Source: Terriglobales bacterium
GTDB taxonomy: Bacteria; Acidobacteriota; Terriglobia; Terriglobales; Acidobacteriaceae
Assembly (NCBI GenBank): GCA_035526435.1
Contig: DATLCI010000150.1
Span: forward strand, 1 to 48,532
DNA length: 48,532 nt
Direction of reading: 5' to 3'
This document shows, one piece after another, positions 23,898 to 48,532 of the stretch (position 1 is the first letter of the stretch; each line of letters opens with the position of its first letter). The position numbers were made by a program, and so were the translations under genes. The notes under the pieces were generated by a model. It saw only the letters and a list, made by a program, of their open reading frames with translations, made no database searches and was not told the DNA's origin.

Positions 23898-26138
23898 TTA
23901 TTTGCTTAAAAGCTCTTCTACCTCGTCATACAAGACCGGGAGCTTCGCCGCATCGGCGGCAGAACCGCCGAAGCGGGCGCTCTCATAATGCCCGGTGAAA
24001 TCGGCAACTCTAAGTTGTATCTCGGGGTTACTGATAGTCGCGACAAATTCTGCTGGCGTTTGCGAGGGCGCCTTGGCCATCCCTTTTTTGCCCAGCAATC
24101 GAATGACACGTTGGTACCAGATGCTGGCGGCCATGCGCGGAGCGTTTTCAGGTTTAGCAGCTAATCGTCGCTCGCGCCAGATGCGGATGAAGCGGCGCAG
24201 ATTCAACAGCAGCAGCATTCCCAGCAACATGGCAACTATTCTTATCCCGAGTTGTCTCGGCTGTGCTGTCGCGGAGATCTCCGTGCGTTTCAAGCGCTTC
24301 AGTAATTCCTCGTACCGCTCGCGCAGGTAGATGCGAGAGCTGTCGAACAATTGCCGGGCTGAACTTATGGTCGAAGTGCTGAGCGTGTTCTGGTGGGAGA
24401 AGTCGTAGTTGATCACCCACTCGCTCCAGAACTCCCGCATCGCGTCCACGTAAAGCAGCATGCGTGAGTAAACCGTCGCTCCCGGCTCCGGGCCGGCGGC
24501 GGGCGTGGGATCGAATGTGGCCCAGCCGAAGCCGGGAATATACGCCTCCACCCAGGAATGGGCATTGCGGGCGCGCACCACGTAGCTGCCCGTGATGTCG
24601 TTCAACTCCCCATTGCGGAAGCCATTCACGATGCGCGATGGTATGCCAAGCGTCCGCAGCATCACCGCCATCGATGACGCGAAGTATTCGCAGTGTCCCT
24701 GTTTGCGGGTGAAGAGGAAATAAGCCAAAGGGTCTGAGCCTTCAGCCGTGTACATCTGCAAGCTGTATTGAAAAGTATTTTGCAGAAACGATTCCAATGC
24801 TGCAGCTTTCGCCAGCGGAGAGGTTTGATTACGGGTGACCTCTTCGGCCAGCTTCGCGATGCGGCCATCCATGGGCGGCAAAGCCAGGTATTGCGCGAAG
24901 CCGTCAGGCATTTTCTCCGGCAAAGGCTCGACTAGGGACGGATCGGGGGTGCGCAGCTCAGACCGTCCGGCATAGATGCGGATCTGACGTGAGGGGTCCT
25001 GCGAGACGATGCCGCCATTCCGCTCCACACCGTACAGCCGAATGTCCGACGACAAATGCACCGGGGTCTGGATCAGGAAGAAGTAGCTGGTGCCCAGAGG
25101 CTGCAGCATCACGCGATAGTCGATCGAGCGCGCATTGGCATCGCGCGGCCATTTTTCGAGGCCAGTCAGATAAGTATGCAGTCCGGTGAATTGGAAATTG
25201 ATGCTGGAGGTGCGTACGGGCAGGGTCCAAACCGAATTCATCCAACGTTTGCCGTCAAAATGATCGAGGGCGACGCCGCGAAATTTCAAATCCGCCGGGA
25301 CCACGGTCCGGGGCGGGAATTGCACATGCATCACTACGTCGTCCGATTGCTGGATCCGGCCGATCTCGCCGAGTTGAACGCTGTCGCCGAAACCTGAGGT
25401 GTAGGCGTTCCCGCTGGCAAAACGGCTGAGGTAGCCGCTGGAGACTCTCGGCAAAACGAAGAAGACCGCCACCGCCCCCAGCACGATGGTGATCACCAGG
25501 ATTACAGCAGACCCCGACAAGGAGCGCGCTAATCGCTGGGTCGGCGTGAGGCCGGTGGTGGCCATATGAGTGCCGAGCGCTCGAGTCATCGTTGCCTGGT
25601 CCGCCCCGGCGGGTTTTTCCATCTCACGATAAGACCGCCGCATTTCCATGGTGACGAATGTGGTGACGGTAAGCAGCAAGAACAAACTGAAGGCGACGAA
25701 GAAAAAACTATCCACCGTCAGTACGGCTGACGCCAGGATCATGAGGAAGGCGATCACCGCGAGATAGACATCGTCGCGCTGGCGCTCCATGGAGAACATC
25801 TTGACCACCATGATGAAGAGGACCAGATGGACGGTGGCCGAGATGAAATTCCCGGAGAGCAGCAGAAGGTCGGCGACGTAAAAAAACACGTACGCAATCG
25901 TCAGACGGGTGGTGGTTTTCACCGAGAGGGTGAGTTTCCGGCCTGTAGCCAGGTGATAGGCGCGGAGTCCGAGAGCGGCAAAGACGCCGATCATGGCGAC
26001 GGGATCCAGCTTGCCCGTGCCGGCAAGGGTCACAAATCCGGTGACCAGCATGGCGAACAGCGAGTAATCGTAGTAGCGCTCGACTCCCGCGCGGAGTGCA
26101 TCCGGATGGTTGTGGCGGATTGGCGTGGCGCTGCCCAT
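23898..26138 (-). CDS. Transglutaminase-like membrane protein (TgpA-like: DUF3488 N-terminal TM region plus transglutaminase core)
   Basis: Multi-TM N-terminus. Transglutaminase Cys motif QGHCEYFASSMAVMLRTLGIPSRIVNGF with downstream HSWVE and D residues. ATG at 26138 is preferred over 26231. Confidence 0.8.
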   Translation of the reverse strand: MGSATPIRHNHPDALRAGVERYYDYSLFAMLVTGFVTLAGTGKLDPVAMIGVFAALGLRAYHLATGRKLTLSVKTTTRLTIAYVFFYVADLLLLSGNFISATVHLVLFIMVVKMFSMERQRDDVYLAVIAFLMILASAVLTVDSFFFVAFSLFLLLTVTTFVTMEMRRSYREMEKPAGADQATMTRALGTHMATTGLTPTQRLARSLSGSAVILVITIVLGAVAVFFVLPRVSSGYLSRFASGNAYTSGFGDSVQLGEIGRIQQSDDVVMHVQFPPRTVVPADLKFRGVALDHFDGKRWMNSVWTLPVRTSSINFQFTGLHTYLTGLEKWPRDANARSIDYRVMLQPLGTSYFFLIQTPVHLSSDIRLYGVERNGGIVSQDPSRQIRIYAGRSELRTPDPSLVEPLPEKMPDGFAQYLALPPMDGRIAKLAEEVTRNQTSPLAKAAALESFLQNTFQYSLQMYTAEGSDPLAYFLFTRKQGHCEYFASSMAVMLRTLGIPSRIVNGFRNGELNDITGSYVVRARNAHSWVEAYIPGFGWATFDPTPAAGPEPGATVYSRMLLYVDAMREFWSEWVINYDFSHQNTLSTSTISSARQLFDSSRIYLRERYEELLKRLKRTEISATAQPRQLGIRIVAMLLGMLLLLNLRRFIRIWRERRLAAKPENAPRMAASIWYQRVIRLLGKKGMAKAPSQTPAEFVATISNPEIQLRVADFTGHYESARFGGSAADAAKLPVLYDEVEELLSK

Positions 26139-26198
26139 GCTTTCCCCACATTGTAGCCGCAGCTTTGCCCGGCCTGTCTGCTGCGATGTTATTATCAA

Positions 26199-26297
26199 AG
26201 TGCCGGGTCCCACGCGACGCAATCCCGCCAATCCCGCCAGGTCCGGAAGGAAGCAACGGTAACGGGCCAGTGCGTGCGCAGTGGGCTCCCCGGTACT
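26199..26297 (+). ncRNA. ffs: Signal recognition particle RNA (small bacterial 4.5S type)
   Basis: CAGGTCCGGAAGGAAGCA at 26238-26255 is identical over 18 nt to the domain IV GGAA-tetraloop region of E. coli 4.5S RNA as I recall it. The flanks form a long imperfect hairpin: GUGCCGGG(26200-07) pairs with CCCGGUAC(26289-96), CCCAC with GUGGG, CCCG with CGGG. A TATTAT -10-like hexamer lies at 26190-95. The ends are approximate. Confidence 0.8.
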
Positions 26298-26351
26298 AAC
26301 CGCTCACGTCGCAATGTTTACCTTTCACCCCAAAAATACGGAGACACTGCG

Positions 26352-27356
26352 TTGAAATCGCTGACCGCGGCTAAAGTCACCGCGCTTGGGACCTATGTGC
26401 CCCCCCGCCTGCTTACCAATGAAGCCCTGGAAAAAATGGTGGACACCACCAGTACCTGGATCATGGAACGGACCGGGATCAAGCAGCGTCACTTGGCCGA
26501 CGACGGAGTCGCGACCTCCGACCTGGCGGTAGAAGCGGTACGCCCCATCCTGGAGAAACGCGGGCTCGTACCTAGCGATATTGACGCCATCATTCTCGGC
26601 ACCGTCACGCCGGACATGCTCTTTCCTTCCACTGCCTGCCTGGTGCAGGACAAACTCGGATGTAAAGGTGCGTGGGGGTTTGACGTTTCGGCCGCGTGCT
26701 CAGGTTTTCTTTACGCGCTGCAGACCGGCGTCCAATTCGTGCAGACCGGAGCCCATAAGAAGGTGCTGGTCATCGGCGCGGACAAGATGTCGTCCATCAT
26801 TAATTACGAGGACCGCGCCACCTGCGTGATCTTCGGCGACGGCGCGGGTGCTGTCCTGATCGAACCCGCGGCGGAGGGTGACAGCAACGTCTTCATCGAC
26901 TTTCTCCATGAGATCGACGGCTCCGGCGCGTGCTCGCTTTACATGCCGGCGGGAGGCAGCAAGATGCCGCCTTCGCATGAGACGGTGGACAAGAAACTTC
27001 ATTATGTCCATCAGGATGGACAGGCCGTATTTAAATACGCCGTGCGCAAGATGGCAGACGTAGCGGAGAAACTTCTCCAACGCAACGGCCTCACGGGTAA
27101 GGATGTCGATGTCTTCATCCCTCATCAGGCCAACCGCCGCATCATCATTTCCGCCGCCGAACGCTTGGGTATGCCCGAAGAAAAAGTAGTCATCAATATC
27201 GGTGACTTTGGCAACACCACCGCCGGGACCATTCCTCTAGCCATGCAGACCGGGATTGAGCAAGGCAAGTTGAAAAAGGGAAGCCTGGTGCTGCTGGCTT
27301 CAGTGGGCGCGGGCTTCACCGTGGGCGCAACCCTATTGCGCTGGGGCGCGGACTAG
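26352..27356 (+). CDS. fabH: Beta-ketoacyl-ACP synthase III
   Basis: Catalytic triad context AACSGF (Cys), IPHQAN (His), GNTTAGTIP (Asn). TTG start at 26352 with GGAGA 7 nt upstream. The track start at 26274 would run through the SRP RNA gene. Confidence 0.85.
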   Translation: MKSLTAAKVTALGTYVPPRLLTNEALEKMVDTTSTWIMERTGIKQRHLADDGVATSDLAVEAVRPILEKRGLVPSDIDAIILGTVTPDMLFPSTACLVQDKLGCKGAWGFDVSAACSGFLYALQTGVQFVQTGAHKKVLVIGADKMSSIINYEDRATCVIFGDGAGAVLIEPAAEGDSNVFIDFLHEIDGSGACSLYMPAGGSKMPPSHETVDKKLHYVHQDGQAVFKYAVRKMADVAEKLLQRNGLTGKDVDVFIPHQANRRIIISAAERLGMPEEKVVINIGDFGNTTAGTIPLAMQTGIEQGKLKKGSLVLLASVGAGFTVGATLLRWGAD

Positions 27357-28138
27357 ATCAGCCGGTACAAATTATAAGCAAGGGCCGCGCTGCTGGCCGT
27401 CCCTAGAAGGTTGACCGCTTCATTGTTCAAGTAGCCACGGTGCTCGAATGTTGCGCCGAGCACGCTATCCATCAGCATCCCCAAGGCGCCCGCCGCGGCG
27501 ACCATCACAGCCGATCGGAAATCAGTGAGGAGTAATCCCGCTGCCGCCACGCTCATAGCGGCGGCTATACCTGCCGCAGTTCCCAAGAGACTGATCCCGC
27601 CGTCCGTGCCCGGGTTGGTGGGGCGCATCGTCGTCACCAGGTAGGTTTGCTTTCCAAACGCTTCCCCGATCTCGCTCGAGACGGTGTCGGCTGCCGCTTC
27701 CGCTAAGGCGGCGATGCATAAGAAAATCCCTAAGGCCGGCGGGAGCACTACGATCGCCGCGGAAGCGATGAAAAGATTTGCCGCCACCTGGGCTGCGGAC
27801 CTTCCAACTCGTGGCTCGGCAACTCCCAGCCACTGCTTCCGACCTCGCCCGGCTTGCGTCGTCAACAGCGTCAGAACGAAGACGGTGAAGAGTACGGCGA
27901 ACATCCGCCGCCCGCCTCCGGCGTAAAGGATGAACGCGGCCATCCATCCAGTCATCGCTCCGCTGGTGCTCACCCCGCGCAGCAACCAGCCACAGATTGC
28001 GAAGATGAATGTCACTATGAGCGCCTCTGCCCAGCTTCCAGCAGCGCTTCGCCAAGCGAACAATGCCAGCAGGGTGAGCATCGCGGCAAGCGCGACCCAC
28101 TCCGTCGATTTGAGCCGGAAACTACGGTCTGAAGGCAT
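27353..28138 (-). CDS. DUF92/TMEM19-family integral membrane protein
   Basis: Polytopic membrane protein with a GTDGGISLLGT motif typical of DUF92, as I recall it. Confidence 0.55.
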   Translation of the reverse strand: MPSDRSFRLKSTEWVALAAMLTLLALFAWRSAAGSWAEALIVTFIFAICGWLLRGVSTSGAMTGWMAAFILYAGGGRRMFAVLFTVFVLTLLTTQAGRGRKQWLGVAEPRVGRSAAQVAANLFIASAAIVVLPPALGIFLCIAALAEAAADTVSSEIGEAFGKQTYLVTTMRPTNPGTDGGISLLGTAAGIAAAMSVAAAGLLLTDFRSAVMVAAAGALGMLMDSVLGATFEHRGYLNNEAVNLLGTASSAALAYNLYRLI

Positions 28139-28212
28139 GAATTTGAGTCAAGTCAACATTGCTTATGGCGCCTCGCATCCTACCAGACTGCCTTCACTTG
28201 CTTGGAGCGACT

Positions 28213-29052
28213 ATGGCCTCATTGTGGACCGGATACCTTACCTTTGGACTTATCTCTATGCCGGTGCGCTTGTTTTCCGGCGCGCGAAGCGAGCACGTCT
28301 CCTTTCACATGCTCCACCGCGACGACAACGTCCGGGTAAAACAGCAGTTGGTCTGTCCCGCCGAGAACAAGGTCATTGAACGCAGCGAGACCGTCAAAGG
28401 CTACGAGTATTCGAAAGGAGAATATGTCATCGTCGAGCCGGCGGAGATCAAGAAGATCGAGCCGAAGACGGCCAAAGCGATGGAGATCCTCGAATTCGTA
28501 AAAGCAGACGACGTGGACCCCATTTATTTTGAGTCGTCGTATTACCTGGTTCCGGAAGAAGGCGGACGCAAGCCGTATGCGCTTCTGCAAAAGGCGTTGG
28601 CCGACAGCGCTTATGTGGGCGTAGCGAAACTCACGATGCATAACCGCGAGTACACGGTCCTATTGCGGCCCTATGAAGGTGGCCTGATGCTCCACACCAT
28701 CTACTACAAGAATGAGATTCGCGAGGTGGAGGGCTTCGGCGAGATCGACGTGGAGATCAAACCGGCGGAGATCAAAGTTGCGAACCAATTGATCGAAGCG
28801 CTGGCCGCCGAATGGGAGCCGGAAAAGTACGCGGACACTTTTCAAGAAAACGTAAAGAAACTCATCCAGGCCCGGCTTGACGGCAAGGAAGTGGTTGCGG
28901 TGGATAAGCCCAGGAAGATGGCCCCCGTGGTGGATCTGATGGAAGCCCTGAAGGCCAGCTTGGCGCAAAAAGAGGGGAAGGCCGCGCCCAAGACCGGCCA
29001 GAAGAAGGCTCCCCAGCGGGCCACGGCAAAGCGGCGCAAGCCTGCTGCTTAA
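28213..29052 (+). CDS. ku: Non-homologous end-joining protein Ku
   Basis: MASLWTGYLTFGLISMPVRLFSGARSEHVSFHMLH is a characteristic bacterial Ku N-terminus. Lys/Arg-rich C-terminal tail. ATG at 28213 with GGAG upstream. Confidence 0.85.
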   Translation: MASLWTGYLTFGLISMPVRLFSGARSEHVSFHMLHRDDNVRVKQQLVCPAENKVIERSETVKGYEYSKGEYVIVEPAEIKKIEPKTAKAMEILEFVKADDVDPIYFESSYYLVPEEGGRKPYALLQKALADSAYVGVAKLTMHNREYTVLLRPYEGGLMLHTIYYKNEIREVEGFGEIDVEIKPAEIKVANQLIEALAAEWEPEKYADTFQENVKKLIQARLDGKEVVAVDKPRKMAPVVDLMEALKASLAQKEGKAAPKTGQKKAPQRATAKRRKPAA

Positions 29053-38553: not shown

Positions 38554-38569
38554 AGCAATGGGGCTGCCA
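38554..38569 (-). promoter_or_regulatory. Sigma-54 (-24/-12) promoter facing the TonB_C-MCP-che operon
   Basis: The minus strand reads TGGCAGCCCCATTGCT against consensus TGGCACG-N4-TTGCW, with exact GG-to-GC spacing. It lies about 40 nt upstream of the GTG at 38514. Confidence 0.6.
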
Positions 38570-38670: not shown

Positions 38671-38726
38671 GTCTCACCACTCCATGTTTGTCTCAGCATG
38701 AGACGGTTCAGGTCCATCCGTCTCAT
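38671..38726. promoter_or_regulatory. Cluster of four TGAGAC/GTCTCA hexamers including a 9-bp inverted repeat (candidate enhancer/UAS)
   Basis: GTCTCA at 38671, 38690 and 38720; TGAGAC at 38699. ATGAGACGG(38698-706)-N11-CCGTCTCAT(38718-726) is a perfect inverted repeat. The cluster lies 108-157 bp upstream of the minus-strand -24 element. Confidence 0.5.
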
Positions 38727-38823: not shown

Positions 38824-41679
38824 TTGAAGCCAATGCAAGCACCTCAGAAGATAGAGCCCAGCTCTGTCTCTGGTTCGGGGTTGGGGGAAGCCGATTACCT
38901 GGCTCTGGCCCGGCTGTGCGCTGATCTGGGCGCGGCGCCGGACTTCAATCATTTCCTGGAACAATTTTGCGAACGCGGAGCGGCCTTCTGTGGTTTTAAC
39001 CGTTCATTCGTTGCGTTAGTGGATGAAACCGGTTGCGAGATCCATTGCGGTTTTGACAACCATACCCCTCGGCAGATGCGGATGCGGCTGGATACTGCCT
39101 TCACGCGGCAGGTCATCGCCACGCAAAAGGCGTTTTACACCGAGAATGCGGCCGGGGAACATCAATCGGATCATGACGCAGTGCGCATGTTCAGCGTCGA
39201 GCAGTATCTAAGCGTGCCGCTGGTCCACCGGGGGAAGGTGGTGGCCGTCCTCGGGTTGCTGGACCGCAAAGATGACGGTCTGCTTACTGCCGACGTGATC
39301 GCTCGGGCCGAGGTTTTAGCTTCGCAGGTGGCCGTCATCCTCGAATCGGTTCGTAATCTTCATCAGTCCGAACTGAATCGCAAGCGGTCTGAGATATTGG
39401 TAGCGATGGCCTTGGAACTAGGTTCTTCGCTGGGCCTTCCTGACCTGGTGCATAGTTTTACCGTGCGCGCGGCCAGCTTGTTGGGCGCTCGCGGCGCGGC
39501 CCTCAGCCTGACACATGGTTCTGTCCAGGAATGTGTGGTGCTGGAAGACAGCCGCGTGGAAACCACGCGGGAGACGATGCGGGACCTGGCCCTGTTTTTC
39601 ACCGCTGCTGCCCATGAGTCTTACGAGACCGTCCAGGCCATCCCCGCGTCAGCGTTGGGCGACGTGCAAAAGAAGTTGCACTGGAACGAGTTGACCCTGG
39701 CGCGCCTGGTGGGTGGAAGCGGGGAACTGCTCGGCATCCTTTGTCTGGTTGATTGCGACCGCGGGCTCACCCGTGACGATGAACAGATGATCCTGGCGCT
39801 TACCGGGCACGCGTCGGTCGCGCTGGAAAATTCGCGACTCTTCTCCAAGATCGCCCAGTCGAATAAGCAATGGTCGGAGATATTCGACGCGCTCTCTGAC
39901 TACATCGTGGTGCATGACGATAATCATCGCGTAATGCGGGTGAACCAGCCGCTGGCGGAATTCATTGGCGCCCGGCCGGCAGAGATGATCGGCATCCACA
40001 TGCGGGACCTGCTTTCCGGCAACGAGAGTCCGGGCCTTCAACCTTGTCCGTTCTGCCTTCCCGACGCGCGCGATGAACTGTCCATGCCGGTGCTCGACCG
40101 CACCTTCCTGGTCTCCACCTCGCGTATCCACGGGGCGCTCCATGAAGGGCTCCAGACGATCCACGTGTTGCGCGACGTGACGGACCGCCGTGCCGCCGAG
40201 CGCCGTTACCGCGAGCTCTTCAACAATGTGCAGGAAGGCGTCTTTTTCTGTGACGCGCAAGGCACCTTCGTCGATGTGAATGATGCGCTCGTGCGCATGT
40301 TGGGTTATAGCAACCGTGACGAGCTGCTTGCGCTCGACGTGCCCACGCTGTTCTATGCATCGCGCGAGCAGTATCTCAGCGCCCGCAAAGCCGCCGAATC
40401 CGAGACTAAAACCACCCGCGAAGTGACCTTACGCCGCAAAAATGGAGCGCTGCTGAATGCGCTGGAAAGCTCGATGGCAGTGCGCGATGCCCGCGGCGAG
40501 ATCATCCAATATCGCGGTCTCCTGCTGGACATCACGGACGCGAAACTCTTCCAGTCGCAGTTACAGCGGGAAAAGGACTTCAACAACCAGATCCTCAACA
40601 ACACGCAGAGCATGATCATGGTGGCGGATACCGCCGGCCTCATCAGCTACGCTAATCGACGCTGCTATGAGGCAGGACAGTTCGATGAAGGCTCATTGGT
40701 GGGCCATCGCATGGCTGAATTCATCGCCGAACGTGACCGCGCGGAATGGGAAGCCAGCTTCGATGCCGTCCTTCTGGGCGAGCCGGTGAACAACCTGGAA
40801 ATGCATATGCTGCGCGGCGACGGATCCAAGGGTAAATTCTCCGCCAATATCAGCCCTATGCAAGACCAGCAGGGCAGCGTGAACAGCATCGTGGTGGTGA
40901 TGACGGATATTACGGATGTCGCCGTGATTCGCGCCAAGCTGATGCATACGGAAAAACTTGCCGCGGTGGGGCAGCTCGTCTCCGGGGTGGCCCATGAAGT
41001 CAACAATCCGCTGACGGCCATCATGGGCTTCGCGGACCTGATGCTGGAAAATCCGAGGCTGCCGAAGGCGGTCCATCAGGACTTGCGCGTCATCATGCAG
41101 GAGGCGCAGCGCACCAAGGAGATCGTGCAGAACCTGTTGAGTTTTGCCCGCCAAACGCCGCCCCATCGCAAGCTGGTGGATGTGAATGCGGTGGTGAAAC
41201 GGACCATCGCATTGCGTTCCTATGACTTCGCCAGCCATGGCGTGAAGGTGGTGGAACGCCTCGACGAAAATGTTCCGGAGATCGTGGGCGATGCTCACCA
41301 GCTTCAGCAGGTATTCCTGAACATCCTGAACAATGCCTACGACGCGATCCAGGAAGTGGATCACCGCGGACGCATCGAGATCGAGACGGAGAATGTGGGT
41401 GACGGATATATCCGCATCACCTTCCGTGACAACGGCCCGGGGGTGGAGAACCCGGAGCGCATCTTCGAACCCTTCTTTACCACCAAGGACGTAGGCAAGG
41501 GTACCGGGCTCGGCCTCAGTATTTGCTACGGCATTGTCCGCGAGCATGGCGGCGAGATCATGTGCCGTCCGCAGCGTCCGGAATTGCAAGGCGCAACTTT
41601 CTGCGTGCGCCTGCCCACCGTGCCCACCCAGATCGCTACCGCCATGGAAGGCCAGGAACAAGGGGAGGTGGCCGAATGA
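38824..41679 (+). CDS. Cytoplasmic sensor histidine kinase with tandem GAF and multiple PAS domains
   Basis: No TM segment. GAF-like N-terminal two domains and three PAS-like segments. H-box VAHEVNNPLTAIMGFADLML; N, G1 and G2 boxes (LNILNNAYDA, DNGPGV, GKGTGLGLS). The start is TTG 38824 or ATG 38833. Confidence 0.9.
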   Translation: MKPMQAPQKIEPSSVSGSGLGEADYLALARLCADLGAAPDFNHFLEQFCERGAAFCGFNRSFVALVDETGCEIHCGFDNHTPRQMRMRLDTAFTRQVIATQKAFYTENAAGEHQSDHDAVRMFSVEQYLSVPLVHRGKVVAVLGLLDRKDDGLLTADVIARAEVLASQVAVILESVRNLHQSELNRKRSEILVAMALELGSSLGLPDLVHSFTVRAASLLGARGAALSLTHGSVQECVVLEDSRVETTRETMRDLALFFTAAAHESYETVQAIPASALGDVQKKLHWNELTLARLVGGSGELLGILCLVDCDRGLTRDDEQMILALTGHASVALENSRLFSKIAQSNKQWSEIFDALSDYIVVHDDNHRVMRVNQPLAEFIGARPAEMIGIHMRDLLSGNESPGLQPCPFCLPDARDELSMPVLDRTFLVSTSRIHGALHEGLQTIHVLRDVTDRRAAERRYRELFNNVQEGVFFCDAQGTFVDVNDALVRMLGYSNRDELLALDVPTLFYASREQYLSARKAAESETKTTREVTLRRKNGALLNALESSMAVRDARGEIIQYRGLLLDITDAKLFQSQLQREKDFNNQILNNTQSMIMVADTAGLISYANRRCYEAGQFDEGSLVGHRMAEFIAERDRAEWEASFDAVLLGEPVNNLEMHMLRGDGSKGKFSANISPMQDQQGSVNSIVVVMTDITDVAVIRAKLMHTEKLAAVGQLVSGVAHEVNNPLTAIMGFADLMLENPRLPKAVHQDLRVIMQEAQRTKEIVQNLLSFARQTPPHRKLVDVNAVVKRTIALRSYDFASHGVKVVERLDENVPEIVGDAHQLQQVFLNILNNAYDAIQEVDHRGRIEIETENVGDGYIRITFRDNGPGVENPERIFEPFFTTKDVGKGTGLGLSICYGIVREHGGEIMCRPQRPELQGATFCVRLPTVPTQIATAMEGQEQGEVAE

Positions 41680-42056
41680 CGGTCTCCGAACTCCCTTTGC
41701 TGGTGATCGAGGATGAACCCTCAGTACAAGTCTTCTTGCGCACCGCGCTCGAACGCGATGGCTTCGATATCGTGCTGGCTTCCTCCGGCGTGGAAGGGTT
41801 GCGGCTGTTGCAGCAACGGGACTTTCGCGCCGTGATCTCCGATATGCGCACTCCCGGAGGCGTGAATGGCGGCGATGTCCATAGTTGGCTTTCTGCGAAC
41901 CGCCCCGAGCTGGTCGCCAAGATGCTTTTCATCACCGGCGACATTGTGAACGACGAGACGACTGAGATCTTGCAACGCACCGGGGTGCGCTGTATCGAAA
42001 AACCATTCCGCGTGCAGGAGCTGCTGGCCGCGGTCAAACAAGTGATAGGGACTTAG
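41676..42056 (+). CDS. Single-domain response regulator (receiver only)
   Basis: LLVIEDEP, phospho-acceptor context VISDMRTPG, FITG, EKPF. Its ATG overlaps the kinase stop (ATGA at 41676-79). The track ORF start at 41523 is rejected. Confidence 0.85.
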   Translation: MTVSELPLLVIEDEPSVQVFLRTALERDGFDIVLASSGVEGLRLLQQRDFRAVISDMRTPGGVNGGDVHSWLSANRPELVAKMLFITGDIVNDETTEILQRTGVRCIEKPFRVQELLAAVKQVIGT

Positions 42057-42057
42057 T

Positions 42058-43458
42058 ATGCAGGACTTGAAGATCCGATTTCTGATCGTGGATGACGACA
42101 AGAACATCCGTCGCCTATGCACCACCATTGGCACGTCTCTGGGCTTTGAATGTTCAGAAGCCGATAGCGGTCAGGCCGCGCTTAACATCATCGACACGGC
42201 TTCGCCGGACATGATCCTCGCGGACTTGATGATGCCCAATATGTCCGGCCTGGAGTTCCTCGATGAAGTAAAGAAGCTCTCGCCGCGCACCGAAGTGGCC
42301 ATCATGACGGGCCATGGGAGTATTGAAGCGGCCGTTCGGGCCATGCGCATGGGCGCCTATGATTTCATCACCAAACCCTTCCGCATCGAAGAATTGAAGT
42401 TGTTGCTGCAGCGGATGGAAGAAAAGATCCAGCTGGTGGCGGAGAACCAGTTCCTGCGCGAGCGCGTGAGCGCGGACTCCGACCTGAATGGCATCATCGG
42501 CTCCTCCGCCAAGATCCAGGACGTGCTTCGCATGGTCGCGCGGTTGAAGGACACGCGCACTCCCGTGCTTATCACGGGCGAGAGCGGCACGGGTAAAGAA
42601 CTAGTGGCCCGAGCCATCCACTACCGCGGTATCCTCGCGAAGAAGCCTTTCATCGCGGTGGATTGCGGCTCCCTGGTCCCGACTTTGATCGAGAGTGAAT
42701 TGTTCGGCTACGAAAAAGGCGCGTTCACCGGCGCCAACCGGTCCAAGGAAGGACTCTTTCAGGCGGCCAATGCCGGCACCATCTTTCTCGACGAGATCGG
42801 TGAACTTCCGCTCGAGATGCAGGCCAAGTTACTTCGGGTATTGCAGGAGAAAGAGGTGCGGCCCGTCGGACGCAATGACAATGTCCGCGTCGACGTTCGC
42901 GTGATCGCCGCCACCAATCGTGACCTGGAAGCTTCCTATCGCAATGGCTCCTTCCGCAAGGACCTGTTCTTCCGCCTGAATGTGGTCACGATCCATCTCC
43001 CGTCACTCCGCGAACGCCGGACGGACATTCCCACCCTGGTGAACTGGTTCCTGGACAAATATGCGCAGGGAAAGGTGCTCCATGTTTCGGACGCGGCGAT
43101 GAATTGTATGTTGGAGTATGAATGGCCGGGCAATGTTCGCGAGCTGGAGAACTGTATTGAACGCGCGGTGGCCTTGGGTAGCGACAGTGTGCTCAACGTC
43201 CACGATCTGCCGCCTGCTCTCCGGGCTCATGCGCCCGGAGCCCGCACGCTGCCGCCCAAGATTGAGACCGGCAACAGTGCAACCGCCACCGACCTGGAAG
43301 AACTCGAAAAAGAGACCATTCAACGCGTCTTCGCCCAAGTGCATGGCGACAAGGCCCTCGCGCTGAAAATGCTGGGCATCAGCCGGGCCACCTTATATAG
43401 GAAGCTAAAGCGCTATAACATCTCACCTGAAAAAGGAATTTCTGCGGCAGCTTCCTGA
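42058..43458 (+). CDS. Sigma-54-dependent transcriptional activator, NtrC-type response regulator (REC-AAA+-Fis HTH)
   Basis: Receiver ([19 protein letters not shown]). AAA+ Walker A GESGTGKE and an exact GAFTGA sigma-54 contact loop ([15 protein letters not shown]). C-terminal [19 protein letters not shown]. Confidence 0.9.
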
Positions 43459-43488: not shown

Positions 43489-43513
43489 TGAGACTCTGTA
43501 TCAACCTGAGACT
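43489..43513 (+). promoter_or_regulatory. Direct repeat of TGAGACT (candidate enhancer/UAS)
   Basis: TGAGACT at 43489-95 and 43507-13, 18-bp period, 96 and 78 bp upstream of the -24 GG. Same core hexamer and same orientation relative to the promoter as three of the four copies in the 38.7 kb cluster. Confidence 0.45.
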
Positions 43514-43583: not shown

Positions 43584-43599
43584 TGGCCGTCCTCTTGCT
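43584..43599 (+). promoter_or_regulatory. Sigma-54 (-24/-12) promoter facing the three uncharacterised genes
   Basis: TGGCCGTCCTCTTGCT against TGGCACG-N4-TTGCW, with exact GG-to-GC spacing. It lies 126 nt downstream of the activator gene stop and about 50-60 nt upstream of the next start codons. Confidence 0.65.
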
Positions 43600-43656
43600 T
43601 ATAAGGACTTGGGGCTTCCTCCGTCGAATCTTGGAGGATAGCCAAATGAGGATTCC

Positions 43657-44013
43657 GTGGCGAAAACCGACCGAACTACGAATGAAGATACTGCGGTGAA
43701 CCGTCTGGCCGAATTCTTTCCCACGGCGGTGCGCATACGCATCCCGGTCTCCGTCACGGCCAGCCGTAAGACCGGAAGCGTTGGGAAGTCAGCCTCGTGT
43801 GAGGAAACCACGATCGAGTTCGGAACGGCGAAAGAAGTTTTATTCACCTCAGCCCTGCCGCTCGAGTTCAACGACACTGTTCGCTTGAAGAATCCGGACG
43901 GCTCTTTTGAGGCACAAGGTTCCGTGGTCGCGGTGCAACTGGGTTCACCCCGCACCGCGGTCGCGGTTCGATTCAATGAAAAGGTCCAAAACTGGATCAT
44001 CCAGTCGGCCTAG
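43657..44013 (+). CDS. Small beta-rich protein, PilZ-like but with degenerate c-di-GMP motifs (hypothetical)
   Basis: Pattern AVRIRIPVSV...EETTIEFGTAKEVLFTS...TVRLKNPDG...GSVVAVQ...AVAVRF resembles the PilZ barrel. Canonical RxxxR and D/NxSxxG motifs are not intact. The start is uncertain (GTG 43657 or GTG 43696). Confidence 0.4.
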   Translation: MAKTDRTTNEDTAVNRLAEFFPTAVRIRIPVSVTASRKTGSVGKSASCEETTIEFGTAKEVLFTSALPLEFNDTVRLKNPDGSFEAQGSVVAVQLGSPRTAVAVRFNEKVQNWIIQSA

Positions 44014-44045
44014 TCGCAAAAAGTAAGCTGAGAAAGTTACCCGAT

Positions 44046-45446
44046 ATGTCTACAGCCATCGCAGCAATCGATCTGAATGTTCTAGCGGGACAATGGCGCG
44101 CCGCGCGCCGCATTTACCCGATCTATTCAGCCGTGCTTCGGCAATTCAACTTGGGAGTGGAGCCTTGCCGGGAGCTAGAAAGCCCCATCAACCGCTCGGA
44201 GCCGCAATTGATGCGCAGCATCGAGGAATGGTTCGAGCGGGCCGATGCCAAGATTGAAGCTTTCCAGATCCGCCAGATATTGCAGATTACGGAGCTCGGC
44301 ACGGAAGAAAGCCTTCGTGCCTTGATCGCTCGCCAGCTCGCTTATCCGCAAAAAACCAAGTCCGTCCGCGACAAGGTGGATTTCCTTATCGTCCAGTATT
44401 ACGCGCAGTTCTCTCCGCACGGCCCGCAGGAAGATCTTAGCTTCGATCATTTTTCTGATGTGCTGGAGCCGTTGGTGGGAGAAGTCTCGCCGCTATTGCC
44501 GCCCTTCTGCGCTGAACTCGATGCTCTGCTGCCGCGGATCGACGCTTGTAACAGCCTCGGGGAATTGCTAAACGGACAAGTCATCGACCGCGCTCGCCAG
44601 ATCAAAGACCAGGCCGAGGAGCGCTATTTCTCGCCGTCAGTACTGGTGGCCGTAGCCCGCTTCAATTATCTGCTGCGACTCGCGTTCTTCCGCCTGATGC
44701 ACGCCGACTTACACGCCATCCGCTTCGCTTTACACGGCATGGAAGCCCGGGGTCAGCACGTCTGCGATTGTTCGGCGGCGGGATTGCAGAAACAAGAACC
44801 GCTGATCTCTGTCCGGCAGATCTGCCACGATTGGAAGAAGCCTTTCCGCGCGGCTTATTCCGCCGGCAGCAACTTCAAGCAATTGATCGCGATTCGTTCG
44901 GCGGTTGAAAAAGCCCTAGCCGCCCCACTGCCGGTGGAAAAGGACATCGCCGTCGCTGCCGCAGCCAACAGCCTGATGGAAGCCACCGCTAAGGTCGTGA
45001 CCCATGTGAAATCCGAGCCAGCGCCGCCTGCGCGGGTCCCAGCCACCCTGGATCTTGACGGTTGTTTGGAGCAGATCGCAGTTCAGTTGATCAACACCAC
45101 ACCTAAAGGTGTCCCCGTGACCAATGTGACTATCGCGGGCACCAAGCTCTTGCTTGCATCCTGGGAAGTTGCGGCATTCGTTCGGGGCGGCAATGAGACT
45201 TCTGACGCGCTCCAGCGGGCGGTCGCAGCGCGGGCCGTGCTCGCCGTTCTGCTCAATGACGCCAAGTCCGGTGAGGCGCTAAGTTTGACAGATGCCGTTC
45301 AGGCGGCCCATACCGAAGCTGCACAACTGCAGGAACTGATAGCCAAAGCCAAAGATGCCAAGAATATTGACGCGGCCGTGAATCTTGCGGCCTCCACCAA
45401 ACGCCTGCTCGCGGCCATTGATGAAGCCGAGAAGCTGCGCGTTTAG
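44046..45446 (+). CDS. Hypothetical 466-aa protein, predicted helical and cytoplasmic, no recognisable domain
   Basis: Long uninterrupted ORF with protein-like composition and no competing long ORF on either strand. No signal peptide or TM segment, and no motif I can assign. Confidence 0.6.
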   Translation: MSTAIAAIDLNVLAGQWRAARRIYPIYSAVLRQFNLGVEPCRELESPINRSEPQLMRSIEEWFERADAKIEAFQIRQILQITELGTEESLRALIARQLAYPQKTKSVRDKVDFLIVQYYAQFSPHGPQEDLSFDHFSDVLEPLVGEVSPLLPPFCAELDALLPRIDACNSLGELLNGQVIDRARQIKDQAEERYFSPSVLVAVARFNYLLRLAFFRLMHADLHAIRFALHGMEARGQHVCDCSAAGLQKQEPLISVRQICHDWKKPFRAAYSAGSNFKQLIAIRSAVEKALAAPLPVEKDIAVAAAANSLMEATAKVVTHVKSEPAPPARVPATLDLDGCLEQIAVQLINTTPKGVPVTNVTIAGTKLLLASWEVAAFVRGGNETSDALQRAVAARAVLAVLLNDAKSGEALSLTDAVQAAHTEAAQLQELIAKAKDAKNIDAAVNLAASTKRLLAAIDEAEKLRV

Positions 45447-45469
45447 ACAATTCCCCCAGGGAGAATAAA

Positions 45470-46153
45470 GTGAATCATCCGACCATTGTCATCATTGCCG
45501 ATCAGAACGACCAGGCCCGCGATATCGTTGCCCGCTGGCAGATGGAACGCACGGTACCCGGCTTCACTTTGTTGAACAGTGAATTGTGGGATCCGGCGCT
45601 GGTGGCGGCTTGCGATCTGGCCATCGTCTTCGACGTGAAGGAAGAGCGGGCTACGCCCATCCTGGCGGCCTTTGACGGAAAAAATATTCCTTGCATCTAT
45701 GTTGCGGAGAAGCTGGCTGCCTTTCAGCACTTTCGCTCCGCTTTCCCGCGCGTGCTGGTCATCCAGCAGCACGACGCCTGGCTCGAATCATTGGTGGTGC
45801 TGGCGAGCGAAGTCCTGCGGCGGGTAGAGGCCACGGTTCGGGCGCGCAAAGCCGAAGCCAACGCACAACAGATGAACCGGCAAGCGGCGCTGGGGAAATA
45901 CATGTTGGAGACGCGTCACAGCTTCAATAACGCCCTGACGTCCGTTTTAGGCAATGCCGAGCTCATGTTGCTGGAGCCGGCCGCGCTTCCTCACCACGTG
46001 CGCGAGCAGGTGGACACCATCCACAGCATGGCGTTACGGCTGCACGAGATGATGCAGCGTTTTTCGTCACTGGAGACGGAGATGCACTTCGCGGACCGCG
46101 AGTCTCAAATTGACACCCGGAGGAGAAGTCAGGCTTACATTCCAGGTTCCTAA
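45470..46153 (+). CDS. Pseudo-receiver plus HisKA (DHp) domain protein lacking an ATPase domain
   Basis: The N-terminal 120 aa or so have a receiver-like beta-alpha pattern (TIVIIADQ, DLAIVFDV, PCIYVAE, VLVIQQH) but are missing several conserved residues. A coiled coil and H-box RHSFNNALTSVLGNAELML follow. The protein ends about 60 aa later, with no N/G boxes. GTG start with AGGGAG upstream. Confidence 0.6.
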   Translation: MNHPTIVIIADQNDQARDIVARWQMERTVPGFTLLNSELWDPALVAACDLAIVFDVKEERATPILAAFDGKNIPCIYVAEKLAAFQHFRSAFPRVLVIQQHDAWLESLVVLASEVLRRVEATVRARKAEANAQQMNRQAALGKYMLETRHSFNNALTSVLGNAELMLLEPAALPHHVREQVDTIHSMALRLHEMMQRFSSLETEMHFADRESQIDTRRRSQAYIPGS

Positions 46154-46276
46154 GAGGTTTATCTACCTCGATTAAGGTCAATGAAATGTTAAGCTTTACC
46201 CACTCTAGGCCCGGTGAGACGACCGTTTTGCAAAGTTTAGTCAACTTGTTGAAAACCTTGATTTTCAGGGATATGA

Positions 46277-46636
46277 ATGAAAAAGATCCTGGTCTGTGAT
46301 GATTCGTTGGCCGAGATGAAACTGATCCAGTCCGTGCTGCAACAGGCCGGTTACTGGTCGGTCCCGGTCAGCGACTCCCGGCAGATTGAAAAGACGATCG
46401 AAGTGGAGCGGCCCCACCTGATCCTGCTGGACGTAGTCATGCCTGACCGGAACGGATATCAGGTTTGCCGGGATTTAAAGGGCAATGCCGAATTCAGCCG
46501 CATCCCGGTGATCATCGTGAGTTCCAAGTCGCTGGAGAGTGACAAGTTTTGGGCCAAGCAGCAGGGCGCCGATGGATATGTGATCAAGCCCTTTACCGCC
46601 GTCCAGTTACTGGATGCGGTCAAGAGATTCGTTTAG
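46277..46636 (+). CDS. Single-domain response regulator, PilG/PilH (CheY-like) type
   Basis: ILVCDDS, ILLDVVMP, IIVSSK, IKPF. First gene of an RR-CheW-MCP cluster. Confidence 0.85.
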   Translation: MKKILVCDDSLAEMKLIQSVLQQAGYWSVPVSDSRQIEKTIEVERPHLILLDVVMPDRNGYQVCRDLKGNAEFSRIPVIIVSSKSLESDKFWAKQQGADGYVIKPFTAVQLLDAVKRFV

Positions 46637-46639
46637 ACC

Positions 46640-47164
46640 ATGGAAGAAACGCCACAACTCGAGCCTGTCTCCGCTGAATTTGCGGCAGCGGCGCAGGAAC
46701 AGTCGCAAACCAGCGGCGAACGCTTGCCGGAGACGCAGTACTGCATCTTCCGCGCCGGGCGGGAACGCTTTTGTTTACAGGTGCTCGACGTAGAAGAAGT
46801 GGTCGAGTGGCCGACCGTGACCAAGGTGCCGCTGTCGCCCAGCTTCTTGATGGGAGTATTCAATCTCCGGGGCGCGATCGTCCCGGTCATCGATATTGCT
46901 TTTACCGAAGGGCGTCGCGCGGACTTGCCGCCAAAGCATTGCGTGGTGGCAGCCATGAAGGGAACCGACCCCACGGAGATATTGCGGTTGGGCATCGCGG
47001 CGGATGAAGTCATCGGCACTTACACCACCGCCGAACCGCTGTTGATCGATGCCGCACCCCGGGATGTTCCGCACTGCTGCGGGATGCTGCGGCACGAAGA
47101 CCGCTTGGCGTTGGCCTTGAGCCTGCGCCGCCTCACCGAGACGTTTCCGGTGCCGGTGATCTGA
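46640..47164 (+). CDS. CheW-like coupling protein (PilI-like position)
   Basis: YCIFRAGRERFCLQVLDVEEVVEW...GVFNLRGAIVPVIDI. Confidence 0.85.
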   Translation: MEETPQLEPVSAEFAAAAQEQSQTSGERLPETQYCIFRAGRERFCLQVLDVEEVVEWPTVTKVPLSPSFLMGVFNLRGAIVPVIDIAFTEGRRADLPPKHCVVAAMKGTDPTEILRLGIAADEVIGTYTTAEPLLIDAAPRDVPHCCGMLRHEDRLALALSLRRLTETFPVPVI

Positions 47165-47240
47165 GTTTTGTACTGAGAACGGCCGCAGCTTCGGCAGCGG
47201 AGAGTCACATAAGTTTTTTCTGGGGTAGTGGAGGCTGTAT

Positions 47241-48532
47241 ATGAAAGGTCGGTTAGGTTCGACCATCTGGTTGCTCGCCATCATCAACGCAGTGGCGTTG
47301 TTCGGCGTGCTTATTCTCGCGTACACCGCGGGCGCGAATTCAGGGCCGCAGGGCTTGCCCATCGCCAGCGCTTTCTCGGCGGCTGGAAACACGCCGTTGC
47401 TCCTGTTGATCGGCATCATGGTGGCGCTGACTATGAGCGTGGTGCTGGTCATCTTGCTGGGGAATAAGATCCTCAAGCCCGTAAAGGAACTTGCGGATTT
47501 TTCCGAGCGCCTGGCCAGCGGTGATTACAAGACCAAAGCCAACATCGATTCGAATGATGATTTCGGCTATGTGGCGGACAATTTCAACCGCAGCGGCGAC
47601 AAGATCGCCCGCGCGGTGACCCAGCAAGAAGCCCAGGAGTCCTTGCAGAAGAGCGTCACTGACTTTCTCACCATTGTCAGCCAGATCGCGCGGGGCGACC
47701 TCACGCTGCGCGGCAATGTCACCAACGACGCGCTCGGCAACGTGGTTGACTCCGTCAATTACATGCTCGACAACTTCACCCGGGTGCTGGAGCGGGTCCG
47801 CAAGAGCGCCATCGATGTGGCCAGTAACGCCAATGAGATCTTGCTTTCCTCGGAAGACATGTCCGCCGGCGCCACGCAGCAGGACCAGGAGATCACCAAC
47901 ACCTCTTCCGCGGTGGAAGAGTTGACGGTCTCCATGAAGCAGGTGTCCAACAACGCCGAAGCCAGCGCCGAGGCAGCGCGCCGCGCTCTCGACGCCGCCG
48001 AGCAGGGCAACCGCGCGGTGCGCGACACGCTTGAAGGCATGCAGCGCATCCGCGCTTCCGTGCAAGCGACCGCGAAGAAGATCAAGTCGCTGGGCGACCG
48101 GTCACTGGAGATCTCCGAGATCATCAACGTCATCAATGACATCACCGAACAGACCAACTTGCTCGCGCTTAACGCCGCCATTGAAGCGGCGCGCGCGGGT
48201 GAAGCGGGCCGCGGATTTGCCGTAGTTGCGGACGAAGTCCGCAAGCTCGCCGAACACTCGCGTACCGCGACCAAGGACATTGCCGCGCTGATCAAAGCCA
48301 TTCAAGCGGAGACCAATGAAGCGGTCGTCGTCATGGAGGAGGGCACCAAGGAAGTGGAAGTCGGCGCCAAGCTGGCCGACCAAGCCGGTAAAGCTCTGGA
48401 AGCTATTTCCAGCGTCGTTCGTCAATCCGCCGAGTTGGTGCAGGAGATCTCGCTCGCTTCCAAGCAACAGGTGCGCGGGACGGAAGGTGTCGCCAACGCG
48501 ATGCAGATCATCTCCAACATCACCCGGCAGAC
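47241..48532 (+). CDS. Methyl-accepting chemotaxis protein with minimal periplasmic loop (PilJ-like position), 3' end outside the window
   Basis: My own translation from ATG 47241 (GGAGG at 47230-34): [30 protein letters not shown]...(loop of about 20 aa)...[28 protein letters not shown] then follows, then [36 protein letters not shown]. No stop through 48532. Absent from the ORF track because it is open-ended. Confidence 0.85.

Follow-up and report, generated by a model that had tools for sequence, protein, structure and literature searches.

The contig DATLCI010000150.1 of a Terriglobales bacterium (assembly GCA_035526435.1), analysed over a stretch of 48,532 nucleotides (nt; hereafter the window), carries three consecutive genes, here called g1, g2 and g3, that lie on the same strand between the genes of a sigma-54 two-component system and a chemosensory gene cluster. 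The cassette is real, conserved and undescribed, and literature searches returned no description of a similar one. From the comparison of related loci the trio is predicted to be a conserved, class-wide (Terriglobia) operon of three soluble accessory signalling proteins, of which G2 is a new family and the other two have known signalling folds that have diverged far and shifted in function. The reading favoured here, at a probability of about 0.45, is that the three proteins would form an activator-induced cytoplasmic adaptor complex, in which the kinase-dead DHp protein G3 would bind or dephosphorylate a phosphorylated receiver of the adjacent pathways.

The coordinates of the three open reading frames (ORFs) agree with the sizes given in an original prediction made from the DNA letters, as do the gaps of 32 nt between g1 and g2 and of 23 nt between g2 and g3. 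In a scan of one genome per species, relatives of G2 were found encoded in at least 574 genomes; the best 80 of these, nearly all labelled as Acidobacteriota metagenome-assembled genomes (MAGs), were used for the locus counts, and these 80 genome loci, six metagenome loci and the window were annotated with profiles built in this analysis. Homolog searches returned 23 relatives of g1, 309 of g2 and 3536 of g3, each set reaching down to ~35-50% identity, and the named homologs all come from Terriglobales or other Acidobacteriota, where they are annotated as 'hypothetical' or 'signal transduction histidine kinase'. The gene order is near-invariant, running CheW< MCP< TonB_C< / HK> REC> sigma-54 activator> G1> G2> G3> and, after G3, REC> CheW> MCP> CheR> CheA-REC> CheB> CheW> CheW> PatA_N regulator> (arrowheads give the direction of the genes; HK, histidine kinase; REC, receiver; MCP, methyl-accepting chemotaxis protein), and it is the same in 6/6 metagenome loci. 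Pfam matches identify the flanking genes of the window as they had been predicted, with sigma-54 two-component genes upstream and REC-CheW-MCP downstream.

Among the 80 genome loci, which are species-level genomes of Terriglobia, the trio is present together in 75, always with the NtrC-type activator on its one side and the REC-CheW-MCP-CheA genes on the other; the activator stands immediately 5' of the cassette in 75, G2 and G3 are adjacent in 78 and G3 is followed by REC-CheW in 74. The two-component genes are arranged as HK-REC-activator in 60/80 and as HK-activator in 7/80, no kinase is encoded in 4/80, and truncated contigs account for most of the exceptions to the gene order. Over 83 loci the spacing between g1 and g2 ranges from -26 to 60 nt and that between g2 and g3 mostly from -4 to 68 nt, with 102-169 nt in five loci; such tight or overlapping arrangements are consistent with one operon and often with translational coupling. 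Since each has homologs and their order is kept in 75/80 genomes, g1 to g3 must be regarded as real genes and not as chance ORFs. Two outcomes had been set beforehand as refuting a novel system, namely that all three proteins belong to characterised families or that synteny is lacking, and neither occurred. The closest linkage of the trio is to the activator, and it is kept even in the four kinase-less loci (L027, L030, L036 and L057), where both the kinase and the single-domain receiver are absent and TonB_C is directly followed by the activator; the cassette is retained there and the activator receiver is canonical. One possibility for these loci, by analogy with Che3-CrdA of Myxococcus, is that the activator is phosphorylated by a CheA.

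The promoter elements are likewise conserved. A near-consensus sigma-54 promoter had been predicted ahead of g1, and it was located with the GG-N10-GC spacing of the -24/-12 class. When related loci were scored for TGGY-N8-TGC, a motif with a background of 0.32 per kb per strand, and for at least two TGAGAC/GTCTCA half-sites, the region 5' of g1 carried the motif in 76/82 loci and the half-sites in 77/82, and the region 5' of the divergent TonB_C-che operon carried them in 61/61 and 60/61 loci, respectively. In the whole window the sigma-54 promoter pattern has only two exact matches, one ahead of g1 and one ahead of the divergent operon, and just 14 TGAGAC/GTCTCA hexamers occur in the 48.5 kb, clustered in the same two regions (43489-43512 and 38671-38725). 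An alignment of four divergent loci showed TTTGGCyG-N7-TGC to be invariant upstream of g1, and the putative activator binding site to be conserved as GTGAGAC...GTnTCA...TGAGAC. The occurrence of the same promoter and half-site pair on both sides of the locus suggests one activator regulon spanning the cassette and the divergent TonB_C-che operon, with the neighbouring activator as the presumed regulator of the cassette and of chemosensory cluster 1.

The situation downstream of g3 is more variable. In the window, the spacer between g3 and the REC gene holds neither a sigma-54 motif nor a terminator-like site, and both are also missing in its closest relatives, which makes transcriptional read-through from the cassette into cluster 2 plausible in this lineage. 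In the equivalent spacer of the other loci, the sigma-54 motif was found in 58/77 and the half-sites in 3/77, so that read-through into cluster 2 is not the general rule, and the cassette is not simply the first part of the second chemosensory (che2) operon. Single half-sites (GTCTCA/TGAGAC) at 46102 and 46215 flank the end of g3 and the spacer, and in the related loci L003 and L005 the sequence TGGCyGCGCAATTGC stands at the place equivalent to the spacer of the window.

G3 is composed of an N-terminal (beta-alpha)5-like domain (residues 1 to ~120) and a HisKA-type DHp hairpin (~135-205). The HisKA profile (PF00512), with its gathering cut-off at 26.9 bits, gives 24.2 bits for the window protein, just short of that value, and 33.8 bits for the family consensus; most G3 homologs carry a precomputed PF00512 match. 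The hairpin aligns with the DHp of the neighbouring kinase at an hhalign probability of 95% and a BLASTP identity of 29% (E 1e-7), the two sharing the NN-x-LT HisKA subtype, and the G3 profile weakly matches the DHp of RetS in the PDB (E 0.3). No match to HATPase_c was found in G3, which ends ~75 residues past the His. The prediction of a DHp domain without a catalytic ATPase domain is therefore borne out, and that of a conserved His is not: across 86 loci the H-box reads [RK]-[H/P]-[SGN]-x-N-N-A-L-T-S-x-L-G-N-A, and the phospho-acceptor position is His in 59, including the window (His150), and Pro in 27. The loci with Pro form one clade, whose named members are labelled Acidiferrales and which includes L027, L030, L034, L036-L038 and L040; the adjoining NNALTSxLGNA stays invariant in it. 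The residue after the acceptor (H+1) is S, G or N in 86/86 loci and never acidic, and Asn is found at H+3 (Asn153) in 85/86 and at H+4 (Asn154) in 86/86.

It has been reported that the acid at H+1 is needed for the kinase and not for the phosphatase activity of HisKA proteins, and that Thr or Asn at H+4 is needed for the phosphatase and not for the kinase activity (PMC3510030). It has also been reported that the phosphatase activity of HisKA proteins does not require the His, which is missing from just 0.9% of HisKA domains, and that a phosphotransfer role cannot do without it (PMC12632262). The lack of an ATPase domain and of the H+1 acid, together with the retained H+4 Asn, thus indicates a kinase-dead DHp that retains the phosphatase determinant, and the presence of Pro for His in part of the family means that a His relay is not its family-wide function. 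G3 was accordingly rejected as a conventional kinase, having neither ATPase domain nor H+1 acid, and as an obligate His relay, the His being lost in 27/86 loci. In its predicted inability to autophosphorylate, G3 resembles the pseudo-kinases DivL of Caulobacter and RetS of Pseudomonas aeruginosa, which work by way of their DHp domains, and the Tyr that DivL has in place of the His is a further likeness to the G3 family. Unlike these proteins, which keep their catalytic ATPase (CA) and sensor domains, G3 has just 227 amino acids (aa) with a receiver-like N-domain, and its gene keeps a fixed place in one operon with those of the PilZ-fold protein G1 and the new helical protein G2. As it keeps the H+4 Asn needed for phosphatase activity, it is also comparable to phosphatase-biased HisKA mutants of the CrdS E372A type (PMC3510030).

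The N-domain of G3 had been predicted to be a pseudo-receiver, an assignment that is plausible on the strength of a weak, in-register similarity. Neither the protein nor the family consensus gave a Pfam match to Response_reg (PF00072), and the N-domain was also without an NCBIfam match. Against 14 receivers hhalign returned E 1e-3 at a low probability of 21%, in register from beta1 to beta4, and another hhalign comparison gave 10%; the best PDB sequence match of the domain is the de novo designed protein 6xeh (E 4.8e-5). Of the phospho-acceptor Asp, Thr/Ser and Lys set, D11 alone (the counterpart of CheY D13) is kept in the hhalign register; at the position of CheY D57 the window protein has Phe and the family consensus Gly. 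A comparable layout is known from FrzS of Myxococcus, in which a pseudo-receiver is joined to a helical region for dimerisation and which is encoded beside a pilus-motility chemosensory system; unlike FrzS, G3 has a DHp and not a long coiled coil as its helical part. The catalytic residues of the receivers of the locus are canonical in both the His and the Pro clade of G3, with no clade-specific change that would point to the partner of G3. A region of the PatA_N regulator that matches the receiver profile (e.g. L001 21028-21413) lacks the acceptor Asp, which is replaced by Ala or Ser, and has Arg in place of the Lys; this region may be a PATAN domain or a truncated ORF, since the ORFs end at the locus edge.

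G2 had been described as a cytoplasmic, apparently all-helical protein of no recognisable family, and no characterised family or fold could be assigned to it. Neither the protein, nor its profile, nor the consensus matched any Pfam, NCBIfam or PDB sequence, and no hydrophobic stretch of membrane-spanning length was found in G2, nor in G1 or G3. The AlphaFold2 model is confident, with a predicted local distance difference test (pLDDT) score of 89.4 and a predicted template modelling (TM) score (pTM) of 0.79, and consists of a helical N-domain (~1-320) and a C-domain (337-466) made of a beta-hairpin and four helices, joined by a disordered linker that is rich in Pro and Ala and varies greatly in length. 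A Foldseek search with the model found no match in the PDB (best E 0.33) or BFVD (best E 0.14), with TM-scores below 0.2. An exhaustive profile search collected relatives in 813 clusters at 50% identity, 308 of them at E<=1e-30. Strongly conserved motifs are RDKxDxLxVQY, FFRLxxxDLxxxR, SWEVxAF and AKDxxNIDAAVNLAA, to which are added three conserved Cys (C168, C242 and C260) and many invariant Arg and Lys. As modelled, G2 is a new soluble, almost all-helical two-domain family without a structural relative. A diverged Hpt, CheA or MCP fragment was considered for G2 and rejected, because hhalign returned no match to the kinase, activator, CheA, CheB, CheW, TonB_C or either of the two MCP families of the locus. 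In a divergent relative, P0393 (L087 1153-3630 with its neighbour), the N-domain of G2 is joined to a transmembrane segment plus TonB_C, and the gene behind it encodes a double-PilZ protein of 224 aa, both of whose domains are canonical, with RxxxR and NxSxxG present; this single case links G2 to PilZ-type proteins and to the TonB_C protein at the head of the divergent operon. A metagenome scan for relatives of the fusion found none.

For G1, a PilZ-like barrel with broken motifs had been proposed, which proved true at the level of the fold. The AlphaFold2 model (pLDDT 77.8) has an N-terminal helix, conserved as RLAEFFP, and a six-stranded barrel, and its top Foldseek matches in the PDB are nearly all PilZ domains (probability 1.00, TM ~0.5, E 9e-4 to 1e-2), among them BcsA, Alg44, VCA0042, MotI, YcgR, PA0012, MrkH and the MapZ-CheR1 complex (5y4r). 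The PilZ profile (PF07238) did not match the window protein or any of 26 homologs at E<=1, nor, at E<=10, the consensus of the family; scans of all these sequences with Pfam and NCBIfam gave no match, PDB sequence and profile searches nothing meaningful, and hhalign against the locus families used for G2 no match either. One hit, to 8h2i 'P22' (E 1.7e-8, no passing stretch), was dismissed as compositional. The equivalent of RxxxR in the window protein is the broken R28-I-P-V-S32, in which R28 is the only invariant Arg of the family, about half of the homologs having R-I-P-V-R; D/NxSxxG is replaced across the family by [T]x-I-E-[FY]-G-T (T-T-I-E-F-G-T in the window). According to its model, therefore, G1 has a PilZ fold without the canonical cyclic di-GMP (c-di-GMP) motifs, and fails the sequence criteria of PilZ. 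As a small single-domain barrel it is like PilZ/PA2960 of P. aeruginosa, the Xanthomonas PilZ protein of the FimX-PilZ-PilB complex and MapZ, whose complex with CheR1 it matched, and as a protein without binding motifs that is encoded beside a pilus-type chemosensory cluster it is like the non-c-di-GMP-binding PilZ adaptors of type IV pilus systems. Unlike all of these, G1 lies outside the PF07238 profile and has the helix RLAEFFP in place of the RxxxR loop.

The adaptor model joins these observations in the following way. The phosphorylated neighbouring activator would switch on chemosensory cluster 1 along with the cassette, and probably also cluster 2. G1, G2 and G3 would then assemble as a cytoplasmic complex, in which G3 would dimerise through its DHp and dock a phosphorylated receiver domain, the candidates being the adjacent CheY-like protein, the PatA-type regulator and the activator's own receiver. 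G3 would act there as a kinase-dead phosphatase or as a sensor of the phosphorylated receiver, with neither kinase nor His-relay activity; G1 may be a ligand-blind protein-protein adaptor, like the non-binding PilZ proteins of pilus systems, and G2 a scaffold joining G1 and G3 to their target. The module may feed into, or read out, the second chemosensory pathway, as the original prediction had it.

Several points weigh against this model. Gene order is the sole guide to complex formation and to the receiver that is targeted. The che genes have their own sigma-54 promoter motif after g3 in most loci, as mentioned. G1 is truly absent from three related MAG loci (L010, L012 and L013), where g2 follows the activator stop within ~30-180 nt, so that G1 is not essential and G2-G3 is the core pair. 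Distant G2 paralogs are found in unrelated neighbourhoods, outside any chemosensory context. Where Pro replaces the His, the helix might be distorted, which makes even phosphatase activity uncertain in that clade. Finally, the G3 DHp showed no covariation with the kinase within genomes (0.303 within versus 0.304 across, p = 0.82).

The main rival retains the activator and discards the chemotaxis link, which it takes to be co-regulation only: the cassette would be an output of the activator that acts back on the two-component system, G3 dephosphorylating the activator or the single-domain receiver, or pairing with the kinase in a DHp heterodimer, in the manner of RetS and GacS, and G1 and G2 modulating its action. 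The tight linkage between activator and cassette, which is the most conserved feature of the locus (75/80 loci) and includes the four kinase-less ones, and the separate promoter motif that usually precedes the che2 genes both favour this feedback, and the HisKA subtype shared with the neighbouring kinase and the weak match to the RetS DHp are also in line with it. Against it, the G3 residues at H+8 and H+12, which we take to be receiver-specificity positions, are S and N, compared with A and F in the kinase; the missing covariation with the kinase also tells against it, and the persistence of the trio in kinase-less loci weighs against the heterodimer version, though not against the version with an activator phosphatase. 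Feedback on the two-component system seems rather unlikely, though likelier than the explanations that follow.

An improbable alternative is a second-messenger receptor, in which c-di-GMP or a related nucleotide would be bound by G1 in a non-canonical way, or in which the partner that binds the ligand would be G2, the nucleotide level being conveyed to the chemosensory or pilus machinery as in MapZ-CheR1 or FimX-PilZ-PilB. The fold of G1, the possible RxxxR that R-I-P-V-R provides in about half of its homologs, the canonical double-PilZ protein of the G2-variant locus and the many invariant Arg and Lys of G2 are what could be expected of such a receptor. Opposed to these are the family-wide replacement of D/NxSxxG, the Ser that ends the motif in the window protein, the lack of a PilZ profile match in any G1 member and the dispensability of G1 in three lineages.

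It is hardly probable that G3 is a phosphotransfer shuttle of the Spo0B/ChpT kind, passing phosphate from receiver to receiver through His150 and so giving a downstream regulator its link to CheA or to the two-component system. Like Spo0B and ChpT, G3 is a presumably dimeric helical-hairpin protein related to a kinase DHp that has no kinase activity or working ATPase and is encoded among several receivers, and the His is present in the window and in 59/86 loci. Unlike these proteins, which require the His and have a CA-like domain, the G3 family has Pro there in 27/86 loci with the rest of the DHp almost invariant, a replacement that phosphotransfer cannot bypass (PMC12632262), and the acidic H+1 residue is always missing. 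Least probable of all is that the three are lineage-specific passengers with a non-signalling role, such as structural or polar-landmark proteins merely fixed in position: G2 has no recognisable signalling domain and has distant paralogs in unrelated neighbourhoods, as would suit this view, but the position, the promoter and the upstream site have been kept across Terriglobia orders, which makes it unlikely, and G1 and G3 have folds of the signalling type (PilZ and DHp, respectively).

The adaptor model can also be set against whole systems of similar composition. In the Che3-CrdS/CrdA system of Myxococcus, too, a chemosensory cluster adjoins a kinase of the HisKA kind and a sigma-54 activator of the NtrC type (PMC3510030); unlike the Myxococcus Che3 and Frz systems, the present locus encodes G1 and G2, for which no homology to any component of those systems was detected. 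In related loci, the gene content of the downstream cluster is that of pilus-type systems with PATAN regulators (cyanobacterial Tax/Pix; Pil-Chp), the Pfam annotation of the syntenic L001, L003 and L005 giving the Tfp-class set of a CheA-REC hybrid, CheY-like, PatA_N, CheW, MCP, CheR and CheB. PATAN regulators are reported to contact the pilus motor in Synechocystis (bioRxiv 10.1101/2021.06.11.447907). Sigma-54 two-component control, as encoded here, sets the locus apart from the PATAN-type systems in the literature found, where it is not described.

A far-reaching extension of the adaptor model, which we consider doubtful, is that the cassette encodes a new hub: a DHp 'reader' of phosphorylated receivers without a catalytic domain, a G2 scaffold of new fold and a ligand-blind PilZ adaptor would physically couple the sigma-54 two-component system, the two chemosensory arrays and the type IV pilus/envelope (TonB_C) machinery in Terriglobia, and the N-domain of G2 would be a new family of PilZ- and TonB_C-interacting domains. 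In soil, Terriglobia belong to the most abundant bacteria, and their motility and signalling are almost unstudied. As a fixed, class-wide part of the largest chemosensory/sigma-54 locus of Terriglobia, the cassette offers a way into its wiring. G2 adds a large family with a confident model and no structural relative, and G3 is a natural HisKA DHp stripped of kinase functions, with the His lost in one clade, which bears on the roles of pseudo-histidine kinases. If the adaptor or phosphatase model is true, it would represent a new way to terminate or read receiver phosphorylation in pilus-type chemosensory systems; no phosphatase of the CheZ, CheC or CheX type is encoded at the locus itself.

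Table 1. Features of the cassette and of its surroundings in the window.
Feature	Coordinates	Strand	Details
g1	43657-44013	+	GTG start, 118 aa; alternative GTG at 43696 giving 105 aa
g2	44046-45446	+	ATG start, 466 aa
g3	45470-46153	+	GTG start, 227 aa; GGGAGA 7 nt upstream
Spacer from g3 to next gene (46277)	46154-46276	+	123 nt
Sigma-54 (-24/-12) promoter of g1	43584-43598	+	TGGCCGTCCTCTTGC; GG-N10-GC spacing
Putative activator binding site	43489-43512	+	TGAGAC-N3-GTATCA-N3-TGAGAC; ~75-95 bp 5' of promoter
Second sigma-54 promoter	38554-38569	-	TGGCAGCCCCATTGC; heads divergent TonB_C-MCP-CheW-CheR-CheA-CheB operon
Four GTCTCA/TGAGAC half-sites	38671-38725		Divergent intergenic region before TonB_C-che operon
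GAF/PAS histidine kinase	38824-41679	+	Upstream context
Single-domain receiver (REC)	41673-42056	+	Upstream context, between kinase and activator
NtrC/AtoC-type sigma-54 activator	42058-43458	+	REC-AAA+-HTH_8; Pfam Sigma54_activat 2e-70
Start of second chemosensory cluster	46277-48532	+	REC 46277-46636, CheW 46640-47164, MCP from 47241 on; window ends inside MCP gene
Divergent operon TonB_C-MCP-CheW-CheR-CheA-CheB		-	Other side of kinase/activator genes; promoter 38554-38569

Some further features of the window may be mentioned. The GTG start of g1 lies 17 nt from a strong GGAGGA ribosome-binding site (43634-43639), and an out-of-frame ATG at 43647, 7 nt past the same site, opens a 17-codon ORF (MRIPWRKPTELRMKILR; 43647-43700) that overlaps the start of g1; it may represent a leader peptide, a means of translational coupling or a chance occurrence. 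At some distance (23898-29052) the window also encodes unrelated neighbours, namely a TgpA-type transglutaminase (23898-26231), a FabH-like KAS III (26274-27356), a DUF92 membrane protein (27353-28138) and a Ku protein (28159-29052).

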